This document shows, piece by piece, positions 37,177 through 50,938 of a stretch of 64,000 nt of DNA; the stretch's first letter is position 1; each line of letters starts with the position of its first letter. The DNA is from a phage. Under the pieces are notes generated by a model. That model had not been told where the DNA came from. It did not search any database and was given only the letters and a program-made list of their open reading frames with translations. The stretch lies in the sequence record PZ445488.1. One strand, given 5' to 3'. The translations under genes and the position numbers were made by a program.

Positions 37177-37485
37177 TCAATTAGAAAATAAATTTATCCA
37201 AGTTTTTTCTTTAATCAAAAATGGGTCAGAATTAAACGCCATTAAACTTTGAGTGATTAATCCCTTAAACGGCCCATCAATAAATTCCATTTTGAAATGC
37301 GGAATACTAGTCATCAACCGTGCATTAGGAGCAGTACAAAGAACCTGCTGCCCTGCGAACGGACCTTTAGTCAAACGATATCGTTTAGGTTTAAAATGGT
37401 AAATCTCGTAATTTTCTACAAGAGCCCTTTTATTGCATACTGGGCTGTTATAACAATACTCAAAAACTTCAATAGTGGTCATCAT
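37177..37485 (-). CDS. hypothetical Cys-rich protein
   Basis: ORF track frame; start moved to ATG 37485 to remove the overlap with the upstream gene. Confidence 0.4.
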   Translation of the reverse strand: MMTTIEVFEYCYNSPVCNKRALVENYEIYHFKPKRYRLTKGPFAGQQVLCTAPNARLMTSIPHFKMEFIDGPFKGLITQSLMAFNSDPFLIKEKTWINLFSN

Positions 37486-38021
37486 TGCATTCCAATCACA
37501 AAAAATTGAGGACGAGCAATACCGCCGATGCAATATTTGCTTTTGCAACAGTGTTGGACTGTTTTAATATGGACATTGTAAATCTTATCCATATCAGGAG
37601 CTTTAATAGGCTCGTCAATTATGTACAGAATACGAGAAAGCGTTAATCCACGGAATTTAGAACCTTCATTGCCAATAAAACTACGGACAGAATCAGTAAA
37701 TAAACGGAATCGAATATCATCGCTAGAATAACGAGAAAATTCTTTTTTAATGTTGCCAGCAGAAATTTTAGCATAGGCTGAAGTATTAGAAAGAACAATA
37801 ACTGTTCCACCGTCATACAGCCAATTAACAGCAAAATTAGTTACTGCAGTCGATTTACCTGATTGTCGGCCGCCGTCTAAACGAAGTGTACAGTACTGCT
37901 TGAGTACGTCTTCAAACGGTGGGATATAACCGTTCTTACAAATTTCTTCTACTCTAGCATCAGAATGGTGTGTAAAAGCATTCATCAGGGATAGATAAGG
38001 TCCAGTTAAAAATGTTCTCAT
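37482..38021 (-). CDS. P-loop-containing protein (179 aa)
   Basis: ORF track; Walker-A-like GGRQSGKST. Confidence 0.5.
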   Translation of the reverse strand: MRTFLTGPYLSLMNAFTHHSDARVEEICKNGYIPPFEDVLKQYCTLRLDGGRQSGKSTAVTNFAVNWLYDGGTVIVLSNTSAYAKISAGNIKKEFSRYSSDDIRFRLFTDSVRSFIGNEGSKFRGLTLSRILYIIDEPIKAPDMDKIYNVHIKTVQHCCKSKYCIGGIARPQFFVIGMQ

Positions 38022-38193
38022 TTAGTTTCTCTTAAGGTTGGGGCCATTCCGTGGCACATGTTAGGTCCTTCGACTCGCTATGTAAACCCATTACCGCATT
38101 GCGCTCGACCTTATTACAGGTTGGAAAAGGTACATCACTTAGAGGACTCGACGTTCATAAGGAGAGGTTGCGTTTCCCTTTATTAGACAAGAA

Positions 38194-38523
38194 TTATACT
38201 CTAGGCTTTTGAGCTTGTTTGGTATTGGATTCCCATGCGGCTTTGGTAATTTTGTTAGCGGCATAGCCAAAGGCATTAGATAGAACACCTTTAGAGTTGA
38301 ATACATCCAATCCAATAAGTACACCTGCTGTGTTAAATTTAGGAGCAAAGTATGCATTAGTTTTAGAAAGAGCTTTTTTCAATTCAGGGTCTTGAACCAA
38401 GCCATCAAAAACGCCTTTACTATTTACTTTATATGTTACTTTGGGATTTTTACCTTCTTCGATAGCAGCTTTCTGTTCAGCAGATAATGTAACTTCAGTG
38501 ATAAATTCTTGATACATTTTCAT
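38194..38523 (-). CDS. internal-protein-like capsid-targeted protein (ipII/ipIII class)
   Basis: N-terminus MKMYQEFITE matches the T4 internal-protein capsid-targeting leader MKTYQEFIAE; adjacent to denV as in T4. Confidence 0.55.
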   Translation of the reverse strand: MKMYQEFITEVTLSAEQKAAIEEGKNPKVTYKVNSKGVFDGLVQDPELKKALSKTNAYFAPKFNTAGVLIGLDVFNSKGVLSNAFGYAANKITKAAWESNTKQAQKPRV

Positions 38524-38529
38524 TTTTCC

Positions 38530-38943
38530 TTAGTAAATTGATTTACCATAGTATTTGTACCAAGTCAGTCGTTGAGCAATTTTTTCATCTAAGCGTGCTT
38601 GACTTATCGCAATGGACGCTTCGGAAGGGACATAATTATTACGAAATTCGGCAGGGATGTCGGAAATATCCTGGACTGTCGTGTCCTTGATTTTGAAACC
38701 ACGTTTCAAGCATTCAGCGATTAGCTCGATTTGTCGTAAACGTAAAAATTCAAGTTTGTCGTAAAAGAATGTTACGTGACCTGTGCCTAAGATAAATGTT
38801 GGAGAGATTTTAAAATCCTTTACACGTTTACCGTTTTGAACATGTTTACGGACTGCACCAAATACGCGTGGTAATTCACGATACTCAGCCATAAGATGTT
38901 GGTCGGTCAGTTCAGAAACAAGTGTTAAATTGATACGGGTCAT
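38530..38943 (-). CDS. denV: endonuclease V (pyrimidine-dimer DNA glycosylase) DenV
   Basis: [35 protein letters not shown]... matches T4 DenV (138 aa) from ATG 38943; the track start 38955 is TTG. Confidence 0.9.
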
Positions 38944-38970
38944 AATTTCCTCCAAGTAGTTGATGAATGT

Positions 38971-39000
38971 ATAGTATCAAAGTCCTTGGAGGAAGTAAAC
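38971..39000 (-). promoter_or_regulatory. early promoter (GTTTAC, 18 bp, TACTAT) inside palindrome CCTCCAAG/CTTGGAGG that contains the denV RBS
   Basis: Minus strand reads GTTTACttcctccaaggactttgaTACTATacattcatcaactacttggaggaaattATG. Confidence 0.5.
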
Positions 39001-39001
39001 A

Positions 39002-39283
39002 CTATTTTTCTGAAGCGCCTGAAATATATTTTTCAAGACGTTGTTTCATTAACGAGCCGTTCTTAGCGATTTCTTCCGGTTTATCGCACATACGCAACAG
39101 TGCTTCAAGCTTAGCGATATCGCTGGTACGTTCAAATTTGCGAGTATCTATCTTACTGGCAAGTTCAGAAATACGTGCTAATAGACTTTCGGCTTCAACC
39201 AAAGCTGCACCTAGCTTAGTTGCAAATGTGTCAGTAGCTTCGTTAAGAATAGATTCTGATAAAAATTCACTATATGTTTTCAT
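39002..39283 (-). CDS. internal-protein-like capsid-targeted protein
   Basis: From ATG 39283: [20 protein letters not shown]...; the ATG overlaps the lysozyme stop (ATGA). Confidence 0.55.
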
Positions 39284-39768
39284 ATATACGCTTTCCAAGT
39301 TCCTGTTTTAAATGTTGAGATTACGCGTTTCGCGCGATTAGGTGTCTGACGATACCATTTAGATTGGGCTAGATTTACTGCCGCTTCATCCCAACGTTTC
39401 TGTTGAAGCATACGAAGAGAATTAGTAAAACCAGCAACGCCTGCTACACCCATTTGGAAGACCATATTGACCAATGCACATCGACGAACTGCATCTAAAG
39501 AATCATATACCGGTTTAAGTTTAGCATTACCCAAGATTCCGCGAACGGCTTTATCGACGTCTTCATTAAATAGCTTTTCAGCCTCATCAAGGGTAATTGT
39601 ACCGTTGCATTTACGACCGATCATTCTGTCAAGTTCAGCTTTAGCTACGGCTAAAGACGGGTTCTTTGTTACTAAATGGCCTATGCCAATCGTCCAAAAG
39701 CCTTCAGTGTCTTTGTATAAAGTCAGTCTAAGACCTTCGTCATTACGAAGCATTTCAAATATATTCAT
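39280..39768 (-). CDS. e: lysozyme (endolysin) gene e
   Basis: 162 aa; [32 protein letters not shown]... is about 80 percent identical to T4 lysozyme by eye; ATG at 39768. Confidence 0.95.
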
Positions 39769-39770
39769 AA

Positions 39771-39794
39771 TACCTCCTACGTTTATAGGAGGTA
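39771..39794 (-). promoter_or_regulatory. RBS-sequestering hairpin upstream of lysozyme e (UACCUCCUA-UAAACG-UAGGAGGUA)
   Basis: 9-bp perfect inverted repeat; the 3' arm on the mRNA contains AGGAGG 5 nt before the AUG; classic T4 gene e architecture. Confidence 0.55.
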
Positions 39795-39802
39795 TTTATT
39801 AC

Positions 39803-40261
39803 TTATAGGAGGGTAGTGAGCACCTTATATAATGATTTGCCCATCACATATTCCCATTGAGAAGGTTTAATTAAAGCGAATGCATCAAATTCAGGAATCT
39901 GTCGTCCGTCTGGGAATGTATGATAGGAATTACAAACACTGTTTCTGAATTGCTCGTGCTCTACAGGGATGGTATATAGGAACAGATGAATATTCTTATT
40001 GTCTGAGTAATGATGTTCACCTAGGTCTTTCAGGAAGGCAGGGTCATATTGTGTAAACCCAGTTTCTTCTTCGCATTCACGAATAGCGGCTTCAATAGGA
40101 GATTCGCCAGGTTCGACACGGCCTTTAGGAATATCCCAGCGATGAGCTAATGCACCTTTAGGACGAGAACCAGTTACACGCCCCATGAATAATTCTTTAT
40201 CTTCGGTAAGGAAAATAATACCGGCTGATAGCTCTTTCACTTTATTTTTCTTACTCATCAT
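39803..40261 (-). CDS. nudE: Nudix hydrolase NudE
   Basis: 152 aa; Nudix box GRVEPGESPIEAAIRECEEETG. Confidence 0.85.
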   Translation of the reverse strand: MMSKKNKVKELSAGIIFLTEDKELFMGRVTGSRPKGALAHRWDIPKGRVEPGESPIEAAIRECEEETGFTQYDPAFLKDLGEHHYSDNKNIHLFLYTIPVEHEQFRNSVCNSYHTFPDGRQIPEFDAFALIKPSQWEYVMGKSLYKVLTTLL

Positions 40262-40502
40262 CTCGGTCCCATGATTTGGCCATTAATTCGGACATAAATT
40301 CTTCAATGCGCGTTTCTTTAGATGGACTTTCACTATTAGAGACCACAAGTTTGTAATCTGCAATAGGACAGAACATATCAAGGTCCGTATTAAGGTCGTC
40401 TTTGATTTTTTCTTCTGACACATCTTTATCGTATGTGTACAGATAACTATCACATGATTCTGATTTAATGTAAATTGCTATACTCATCTCAAATTCCTGC
40501 AT
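40251..40502 (-). CDS. hypothetical acidic protein (83 aa)
   Basis: ORF track. Confidence 0.45.
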   Translation of the reverse strand: MQEFEMSIAIYIKSESCDSYLYTYDKDVSEEKIKDDLNTDLDMFCPIADYKLVVSNSESPSKETRIEEFMSELMAKSWDRDDE

Positions 40503-47296: not shown

Positions 47297-47923
47297 TTAC
47301 TTACGAGTTTTTGCATACTGAGCAGCGTCAGCAGCCAAACGACCTGCTTGTCGAAGTTTTTCTTTAATCTCATCATGAAGTGGTTGAGTATACTTCAAAC
47401 CTTCGATAGTCAAATAAAGACGATAAAGGTCTGGGGTATCAAGGTTGTTGATATGTTGGCCATTACGAAGACTATTGAATTCACGAACGAGTGAAGATGT
47501 ATCAGATTCAATATCACGAACAAGCGAAGATAGTTGTTTATATTTTTTTTCCAGGCTAGAAGTATCAAACTTAAGAGCAGGAGCTTTAGGAGTTGCTTTT
47601 ACTTCCGGCTTAGGCTCAGGTTTTGCTACTGCTTTAGGGGTCGCAGGTTTAGGAGTGGTAGGAGCAGGTTTTACTTTAGGCGAACCAGATTTAGCAGAAA
47701 CACCACCACTAACAATATCTTTGAATGCTTTAGAAGCTCTGTAATATTCTTTTTGGCTGGAAGTGTCGATACCGTACATGGCTTGAACGTTTTTGAAAAA
47801 CTCTGTACTAGTTTTTGTACCAGAAATAGCATCGTAAGCAGCTTGCCATTTCTCTTTTGTCATACGTACACCGGCTTCGGTGATTACTTCCGTTTCGGCT
47901 AAAAATTCATTAAAAGTATACAT
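47297..47923 (-). CDS. internal-protein-like capsid-targeted protein (Lys/Pro/Ala-rich)
   Basis: 208 aa; N-terminus MYTFNEFLAE resembles the T4 internal-protein leader; a late promoter lies 36 nt upstream. Confidence 0.55.
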   Translation of the reverse strand: MYTFNEFLAETEVITEAGVRMTKEKWQAAYDAISGTKTSTEFFKNVQAMYGIDTSSQKEYYRASKAFKDIVSGGVSAKSGSPKVKPAPTTPKPATPKAVAKPEPKPEVKATPKAPALKFDTSSLEKKYKQLSSLVRDIESDTSSLVREFNSLRNGQHINNLDTPDLYRLYLTIEGLKYTQPLHDEIKEKLRQAGRLAADAAQYAKTRK

Positions 47924-47958: not shown

Positions 47959-47966
47959 TATTTATA
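47959..47966 (-). promoter_or_regulatory. late promoter motif TATAAATA (minus strand)
   Basis: Exact octamer directly after the terminator and 36 nt upstream of the 47923 ATG. Confidence 0.45.
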
Positions 47967-50318: not shown

Positions 50319-50582
50319 TTAAATACCAGCTTCGCGTTTAACATAATCGACGTAAGCTTGGATAGCTTTCTTGCTGGTAATTTTTACCTGGCCTCGTCCG
50401 TTGCCTTCTTTAGAGTTTTTCTTAACAACTACATTACCATCTTTAACACCCCATACATGGACATAAGTACCGATGTTTCGGTCGTAGAACATTGCATGGT
50501 CGTTGTTGTAAGAGAATGATTCGTAGTTCTCTGACAGAGTAGAAGATTGAGATTCAGCGATAAATTCTTTATAGGTTTTCAT
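50319..50582 (-). CDS. internal-protein-like capsid-targeted protein (ipI class by position)
   Basis: 87 aa; N-terminus MKTYKEFIAE is a near-exact match to the T4 internal-protein leader; next to 57B as T4 ipI is. Confidence 0.55.
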   Translation of the reverse strand: MKTYKEFIAESQSSTLSENYESFSYNNDHAMFYDRNIGTYVHVWGVKDGNVVVKKNSKEGNGRGQVKITSKKAIQAYVDYVKREAGI

Positions 50583-50617
50583 TTGTTTTTCCGTTTGGTT
50601 GTTGATTTGATAGGACT

Positions 50618-50647
50618 ACTATAACATAGTCCTATCAGCATGTAAAC
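50618..50647 (-). promoter_or_regulatory. early promoter (GTTTAC, 18 bp, TATAGT) in palindrome GATAGGACTA/TAGTCCTATC
   Basis: Minus strand reads GTTTACatgctgataggactatgtTATAGTagtcctatc. Confidence 0.45.
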
Positions 50648-50650
50648 TAC

Positions 50651-50938
50651 TTACAGAAGAGTTTTTGCAATAATTTTAAGCTGAGCTACAGAAATATGCT
50701 TAGCTTTAAACAGTGCGGTCTCTTCGGCCGGAGAGATAACAACAGTAGCGCCATCTTTCTTAGCAGACCATCCGTCCCCTAAGTAAACAGTACCTTTTAC
50801 TTCTTCACCATCAACCAGACTAATCATCGGTTTACCCTCACGTCCTTTATTTGCTTTAATAACTTCGGAAGTAAGGGTTGCTTCGGTCAGAGTAGAAACG
50901 TTAGCAACAGGTGATATAAATTCTTTATAGGTTTTCAT
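50651..50938 (-). CDS. internal-protein-like capsid-targeted protein (second tandem copy)
   Basis: 95 aa; N-terminus MKTYKEFISP. Confidence 0.55.
   Translation of the reverse strand: MKTYKEFISPVANVSTLTEATLTSEVIKANKGREGKPMISLVDGEEVKGTVYLGDGWSAKKDGATVVISPAEETALFKAKHISVAQLKIIAKTLL

Follow-up and report, generated by a model that had tools for sequence, protein, structure and literature searches.

Two small leader-bearing genes flanking denV in a Mosigvirus as probable head-packaged internal proteins in a recombining cassette array

What do the two small genes on either side of denV in a T-even-type coliphage encode, and would their products travel in the phage head and reach the host cell together with the DNA? 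The window considered here, i.e., the whole analyzed stretch of 64,000 nucleotides (PZ445488.1), comes from a Mosigvirus, an RB69-like coliphage of the Tevenvirinae; a fragment of Escherichia phage CEV1 matches its ~2-kb denV region at 100% identity, and many complete Mosigvirus genomes do so at ~98%. An earlier note had placed an ORF with an internal-protein leader on each side of denV, and the gene coordinates and translations agree with this description; both ORFs lie on the minus strand. In the direction of transcription, the order is nudE, e, ORF-B, denV, ORF-A, a 172-nt spacer and vs.8, which places both ORFs in an internal-protein (Ip) locus of the e-ipIII-ipII-denV type (e / ORF-B / denV / ORF-A / vs.8, as compared with T4, RB69 and WG01). 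The relevant features of the window are as follows.

37482-38021, minus strand: vs.8 (PHROG 1488)
38194-38523, minus strand: ORF-A, 109 aa, starting MKMYQEFITE, RB69 ORF123c family
38494-38523, minus strand: ORF-A leader MKMYQEFITE, with a predicted gp21 cut after I-T-E10
38530-38943, minus strand: denV, endonuclease V (pyrimidine-dimer glycosylase; Pfam Pyr_excise 3e-14, PHROG endonuclease V 1e-61)
38944-39001, minus strand: hairpin between ORF-B and denV (MFE -17.8 kcal/mol, z -2.95)
39002-39283, minus strand: ORF-B, 93 aa, leader-bearing, Ip5 family
39280-39768, minus strand: e (lysozyme), its stop overlapping the ORF-B start (ATGA)
39769-39807, minus strand: hairpin over the e ribosome-binding site, with late-promoter-like TATAAGTA and AATAAATA
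50319-50582, minus strand: 87-aa protein adjoining the IPI homologue, leader MKTYKEFIAE (PHROG 13302)
50651-50938, minus strand: IPI homologue in the second Ip locus, with a 19-aa leader and an L-T-E19 cut site (Pfam IPI_T4 3e-50 over residues 20-95)

The denV stop codon lies 6 nt upstream of the ORF-A ATG. For ORF-B, the ORF list gives an upstream TTG as the start, and the leader comes from the ATG at 39283. Two further observations concern the vs.8 end of the locus: vs.8 itself (37482-38021, minus strand) gives weak matches to P-loop/terminase large-subunit N-terminal profiles (PHROG 2 at 1e-5; Pfam AAA_14 and Terminase_6N below threshold), and the spacer between it and ORF-A (38022-38193) contains a 40-nt core (38086-38124) that is 95% identical to the equivalent spacer of Dhakavirus WG01. 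This core extends to the first hexamer of a GTTTACA-17-TAACAT match (38086-38058), which may represent the vs.8 early promoter. The same 172-nt spacer revealed no structured RNA (it folds worse than shuffled sequence, z +1.98) and no similarity to the one WG01 cassette protein compared with it; an Rfam scan of 37400-40400 gave no match.

The case for head packaging starts with the leaders. In a six-frame translation of the window, the pattern MK.Y.EF[ILV] occurs four times, always at the start of a coding-strand ORF, against a mean of 0.005 occurrences in 200 triplet shuffles; two of these sites flank denV and the other two fall in the 57B-ipI locus (ORF starts at 50938 and 50582). With Y4, F7, I8 and E10 in ORF-A and Y4, F7, L8 and E10 in ORF-B, both leaders have the aromatic residue at position 4 and the Phe at position 7 of a capsid targeting sequence (CTS), and both carry the (L/I)-x-E motif of the gp21 prohead protease as a sequence motif (ITE10 in ORF-A, LSE10 and LNE15 in ORF-B). 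The suppressor analysis of Mullaney and Black, as summarized in PMC9026906, assigns residues 4 and 7 to targeting and residues 8 and 10 to gp21 processing. It is also reported that T4-type internal-protein leaders span 10-19 residues, that the first 10 residues of T4 IPIII alone suffice to package foreign proteins, and that the gp21 protease and the gp22 scaffold are encoded by core genes of T4-related phages (PMC9026906). The four positions (Y4, F7, I/L8, E10) are kept in nearly all copies, including a 35%-identical Dhakavirus homologue of ORF-A. Codon 3 of ORF-A is also an ATG, so that an alternative start is possible, with a leader shorter by two residues.

The mature parts were described previously as unrelated to each other, and this is upheld, since the BLASTP similarity between ORF-A and ORF-B is confined to the first 11-15 residues; matches of either ORF to T4 IPII and IPIII by BLASTP are limited to the same segment. 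The accompanying statement that T4 IPI, IPII and IPIII all start with MKTYQEFIAE holds for IPII and IPIII and fails for IPI, which starts with MKTFKEFTSTTTPVSTITE and has a 19-residue leader.

We consider it likely, judging from sequence, that ORF-A and ORF-B are head-packaged internal proteins of the T4 type. In the proposed mechanism, the N-terminal CTS of ~10 residues would bind each protein into the scaffolding core of the prohead, gp21 would remove the leader (after I-T-E10 in ORF-A and most likely after L-N-E15 in ORF-B), and the mature proteins of 8-11 kDa would remain inside the head alongside the DNA, with which they would then be delivered into the cell. Four observations on the genes themselves speak against this reading: (i) ORF-B in its mature form is close to neutral, whereas the T4 Ips are basic; (ii) ORF-A has no late promoter of its own and follows the early-type gene denV at a distance of 6 nt; (iii) the leaders of both homologues (ORF123c and ORF127c) are damaged in the RB69 record; and (iv) the possible start at codon 3 of ORF-A would shorten its leader. 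In that record (AY303349), the leader of ORF127c, the ORF-B homologue (locus positions 1076-1357), is scrambled by a compensated frameshift (MKTYMNFYQNLSLNE), and ORF123c, the ORF-A homologue (locus positions 2501-2830), has E10 replaced by A (MKTYQEFIAAV); these changes may be old sequencing errors or a genuine loss of the E10 site.

Elsewhere in the window, a 208-aa ORF (47297-47923, minus strand) starts with MYTFNEFLAETEVITEAG, a diverged CTS-like leader keeping F4, F7, L8 and E10. It has a second I-T-E site, a basic linker rich in Pro, Lys and Ala, a match to PHROG 2280 (unknown function, 2e-58) and, upstream, an exact late promoter TATAAATA at 47966, and it may encode a fifth head-targeted protein.

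Both ORFs are real genes, as indicated by the leader motif, by a codon-position bias and, for ORF-A, also by the Dhakavirus homologue. Among five Mosigvirus copies, the variable sites fall mostly at third codon positions (2/4/9 for ORF-A and 2/1/5 for ORF-B by codon position 1/2/3).

Homology places ORF-B in the Ip5 family as its Mosigvirus representative: the protein matches PHROG 3499 ("internal head protein") at 2e-46 and shares full-length identity of 48-52% with ip5 of PP01 and T2 and with bas37_0261 of Bas37 (52% to PP01 by alignment; 48-51% over 84 aa by tblastn against the PP01 and T2 ip5 genes). The family is found in 497 phage records, many of them already annotated as internal head protein. 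All aligned family members have E15 and either L or I at position 13, and position 10 varies (E, with K in Bas37 and V in P0006), so that the predicted gp21 cut falls most likely after L-N-E15 (LNE|A), giving a 15-residue leader; ORF-B contains an additional predicted L-S-E10 site. Depending on the site, predicted mature ORF-B comprises 78-83 aa (8.6-9.2 kDa, pI 6.3-8.1). Since ip5 is located in the ipI locus of Tequatrovirus and between e and denV in Mosigvirus, this family occupies both Ip loci.

ORF-A, which corresponds to RB69 ORF123c, represents a putative Ip family that is unnamed, unannotated and confined to Mosigvirus and Dhakavirus. Of the 91 phage records that contain it, 77 show >=95% identity and 13 less than 60%; the high-identity records are Mosigvirus, and the low-identity records that were checked are Dhakavirus (~35%). 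In both genera the gene is always in the slot downstream of denV, as exemplified by Dhakavirus WG01, where a homologue with ~35% identity and an intact leader follows denV. With the exception of one evident mislabel, ORF-A is labelled hypothetical in all annotated records listed. The predicted mature protein (residues 11-109; 10.7 kDa, pI 9.7) is lysine-rich and basic like the T4 Ips. A full HMMER scan of mature ORF-A against 1.84 billion representatives returned, besides its own cluster, a 119-aa protein with ~33% identity that is presumably the homologue from Dhakavirus; other matches, to long proteins with multiple matching stretches, were taken as spurious. ORF-A also matches PHROG 3966 (unknown function, 1e-30). 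A kinship with the 104-aa gene found next to it in some relatives, as implied by the same PHROG, was rejected because the mature parts have no pairwise similarity; the cluster is probably joined via the leader.

A Pfam scan of the two ORFs gave no match (neither the profile nor the fold of IPI_T4, PF11634, is matched by either), a PDB sequence search gave nothing significant, and a word-index protein search retrieved near-identical clusters only. No IPII or IPIII homologue was found in the 64-kb window. Structure prediction, which had been proposed as a check, yielded AlphaFold2 models for both proteins (pLDDT 76.7 for ORF-A; three helices in an all-helical model with pTM 0.36 for ORF-B); an inhibitor-like fold or a clue to a target did not emerge. 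The fold search with the ORF-B model gave no matches, ORF-A has no detectable fold relatives, and neither sequence nor fold pointed to a target of either protein. A search of the available literature for Mosigvirus virion proteomics and a search of the Silas et al. supplements for leader sequences found none.

The expression signals differ between the two genes. For ORF-B, translational coupling to the late gene e is probable, as is late synthesis together with e, since its start overlaps the e stop and since e is preceded by the familiar hairpin over its ribosome site and by the late-promoter-like TATAAGTA/AATAAATA. This hairpin/late-promoter element is the likely source of late transcripts reaching ORF-B and, by read-through, ORF-A. 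The hairpin before denV (38944-39001) is of another kind: the denV Shine-Dalgarno sequence GGAGG is sequestered in its 3' arm, and GTTTAC...TACTAT, which resembles a T4 early promoter, occupies the 5' flank and loop (a PeSL-like element). This arrangement suggests that denV is translated solely from transcripts starting inside the hairpin element, and not from late read-through ones. ORF-A has its own AAGGA ribosome site and, because of it, would be translatable from early-type as well as read-through late transcripts. An exact late promoter for ORF-A was sought and not found, and, with the gene placed behind early-type denV, its late expression would depend on read-through from e. In the second Ip locus, the IPI homologue and the 87-aa gene (50319-50938, minus strand) are each preceded by GTTTAC and a stem-loop with a -10 region, and these PeSL-like elements are similar to the ones that precede ipII and ipIII in T4.

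The slot between denV and vs.8 is a variable array. Among relatives whose flanking sequences share at least 96% identity, it contains one to four leader-bearing genes, whose presence varies, in the following arrangements.

ORF-A alone: the 64-kb window, CEV1, ATK47/48, PECP20 and others
86-aa gene and ORF-A: NHEP10
86-aa gene, 104-aa gene and ORF-A: GADS24 and many others
86-aa gene, IPIII and ORF-A: SQ17
86-aa gene, 104-aa gene, IPIII and ORF-A: S143_2
84-aa gene (annotated internal head protein), IPII homologue and ORF-A: NHEP36
86-aa gene, 104-aa gene and IPIII, without ORF-A: IME340

Within this array, the leader of ORF-A in the window is a recombinant: nucleotides 1-18 (up to 24) derive from the gene that relatives carry behind denV, and the sequence from nucleotide 25 on is ORF-A's own. 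Many of the surveyed records match the window through denV and the leader and cease to match at 38493, the first base past the leader, and the MKM start is elsewhere exclusive to the gene directly behind denV. The 60 nt upstream of ORF-A together with its first 24 nt are identical at 79 of 84 positions to the 86-aa gene of S143_2, and the next 51 nt at 49 of 51 positions to the ORF-A homologue of the same phage, which places the crossover in the common TTTATC at 38500-38505. ATK47 has the same single-gene layout with another junction (ribosome site / ATGAAAA) and keeps MKT. The region upstream of ORF-A is that of the 104-aa gene in NHEP10, that of IPIII in GADS24 and RB69, and its own in S143_2 and SQ17. 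ORF-A is thus found behind four upstream contexts, with junctions at differing points of the Shine-Dalgarno-leader segment, and ~40 nt of ribosome-site and leader DNA have therefore been used more than once as homology for precise in-frame deletions. An internal deletion has reduced the 86-aa cassette gene to 38 aa in UGJNEcP1 (locus positions 927-1043), a further sign of rapid decay and turnover.

In the mechanism that we propose, the Ip genes are cassettes in a variable array around denV, which the common ribosome-site/leader homology allows to be added or removed in frame; one such event deleted one to three cassettes in this phage, placing ORF-A directly behind denV with a hybrid leader. 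In the model of Repoila 1994, as cited in Arbiol 2010 (PMC2839356), the two IP loci of T-even phages are shuffled via flanking elements that are conserved, with a count of over 30 known IP variants at that time. The recombinant ORF-A leader and the alternative junctions fit this model, and they are the new and most informative point of this analysis. The junctions provide clear natural examples of in-frame cassette loss via leader homology, and such loss explains how nearly identical phages come to have differing Ip sets.

Alternatively, the leader could be a passenger of recombination, with one or both ORFs being ordinary cytoplasmic accessory proteins outside the head, more plausibly ORF-A, because it is fused behind the early gene denV. 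Such a reading would draw on the recombinant origin of the ORF-A leader, on the missing late promoter of this gene, on the damaged leaders in the RB69 records and on T4 IPIII, which is required on ECOR17 and acts in the cytoplasm without its CTS (PMC9391042). Nevertheless, we regard it as very unlikely: the targeting and processing residues are kept even at 35% identity, the T4 leader of 10 residues suffices for packaging foreign proteins (PMC9026906), and ORF-B is coupled to the late gene e.

Provided that the two proteins are packaged, as we prefer to read the leaders, their main role could be physical, namely neutralization of DNA charge or assembly of the scaffolding core. Mature ORF-A, with its many lysines and its pI of 9.7, would suit such a role, as T4 internal proteins contact DNA phosphates via lysines (PMC3012670), T4 IPIII mutants assemble heads more slowly and give a smaller burst (PMC9026906), and no inhibitor-like fold was found. 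However, the gain and loss of cassettes among phages with flanks of 96% identity or more argue against a fixed structural need, ORF-B is near neutral, and all three T4 Ips have specific anti-restriction targets, with Ip1, Ip2 and Ip3 each inhibiting one distinct GmrSD type IV enzyme (PMC12373910). A mainly physical role is, in our view, unlikely.

The description of the two products as candidate injected anti-defence proteins, put forward in the earlier note, is a hypothesis that agrees with the literature on this class, including the HIDEN-SEQ preprint (bioRxiv 10.1101/2025.11.20.689424), and the idea as such is already known. Under this preferred reading of packaged and injected proteins, the mature products would most probably inhibit first-response host nucleases in a stoichiometric manner. 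As targets, modification-dependent type IV (GmrSD/McrBC-like) enzymes attacking the arabinosylated cytosine DNA of the genus would be the best candidates, given that the cytosine of Mosigvirus/RB69-type DNA is arabinosylated and that GmrSD-family enzymes cut this DNA (PMC6024577, PMC13390438). The authors of PMC12373910 expect all genes of both Ip loci to target variants of GmrSD. Taken alone, an anti-type-IV-restriction role of ORF-A and ORF-B is a serious possibility by analogy, which we stop just short of calling probable.

With the Tequatrovirus genes ip4-10, among them ip5, the GmrSD variants assayed were not reproducibly inhibited. This speaks against a simple transfer of function and would favor an injected anti-defence function directed at something other than type IV enzymes, e.g., another early-acting immune system or a host factor. 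The folds, which give no clue, are compatible with such a target, and Srikant et al. (PMC9391042) suggest in general terms that internal proteins counter "first-response" defence systems. On the other hand, all four Ips of known function (Ip1, Ip2, Ip3 and the leader-bearing Bas37_0260, which blocks McrBC according to the HIDEN-SEQ preprint) hit type IV enzymes, and we find a target outside this class improbable. No phenotype of the Bas37 Ip5 gene (bas37_0261) was found in the sections of this preprint that were consulted. Bas37_0260 was also considered as a possible relative and rejected, since its mature part is unrelated to that of any leader-bearing gene of the window.

For ORF-A, which is restricted to arabinosyl-cytosine phages (Mosigvirus and Dhakavirus) and lacks detectable fold relatives, a more specific proposal is that the protein is injected and inhibits a host nuclease or immune sensor, as yet unrecognised, that is directed specifically at arabinosylated (5-ara-dC) DNA. 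We hold this to be improbable. If true, ORF-A and its target would form a defence/counter-defence pair outside the described glucosyl-hmC/GmrSD pairs, and gain or loss of ORF-A via leader recombination would tune host range among near-identical phages.

Overall, the ORF-B family, the leader-bearing class with its anti-restriction factors and its high variability are already known; the current picture is unchanged, and the present analysis adds one unannotated family (ORF-A) and some detail. The interest of such genes lies in internal proteins being the first phage proteins to reach the host cytoplasm and in the four of known function disarming modification-dependent nucleases that limit T-even host range. 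The orphan Ips of a therapeutic-type Mosigvirus are therefore ready candidates for pairing with uncharacterised type IV systems.

Compared with known systems, the two genes share with T4 IPII and IPIII the locus (e-ipIII-ipII-denV-vs.8 in T4), the small size, a near-identical 10-residue CTS with an I/L-x-E gp21 site and, for ORF-A, a basic pI; they differ in having no similarity to IPII or IPIII past residues 1-15, and the slot downstream of denV, which is empty in T4, is occupied here by ORF-A. For T4 IPI, the GmrSD inhibitor in its mature form IPI*, the same delivery route would be expected, the window also encodes a true IPI homologue, and the 15-residue leader of ORF-B resembles the long IPI leader. 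With Ip5 of T2, PP01 and Bas37, ORF-B has in common the full-length homology, the PHROG and the invariant E15 site; it differs in its location between e and denV with an overlap of the e stop, as opposed to the ipI locus (57B-ip5-trna.4) in Tequatrovirus, in its additional E10 site and in a C-terminus longer by 8 residues. Bas37_0260 belongs to the same class of small cassette genes with a MKTYQEFIAE-type leader, and it differs from the leader-bearing genes of the window in its mature part. Finally, the locus resembles the PeSL and IP-locus shuffling described in PMC2839356 in its variable cassettes between conserved regulatory and leader sequences, and in the early-promoter-like stem-loops that precede the genes of the IPI locus and denV. 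It differs from that description in the position of the crossovers, which here fall inside the ribosome-site/leader coding segment and give rise to in-frame hybrid leaders.
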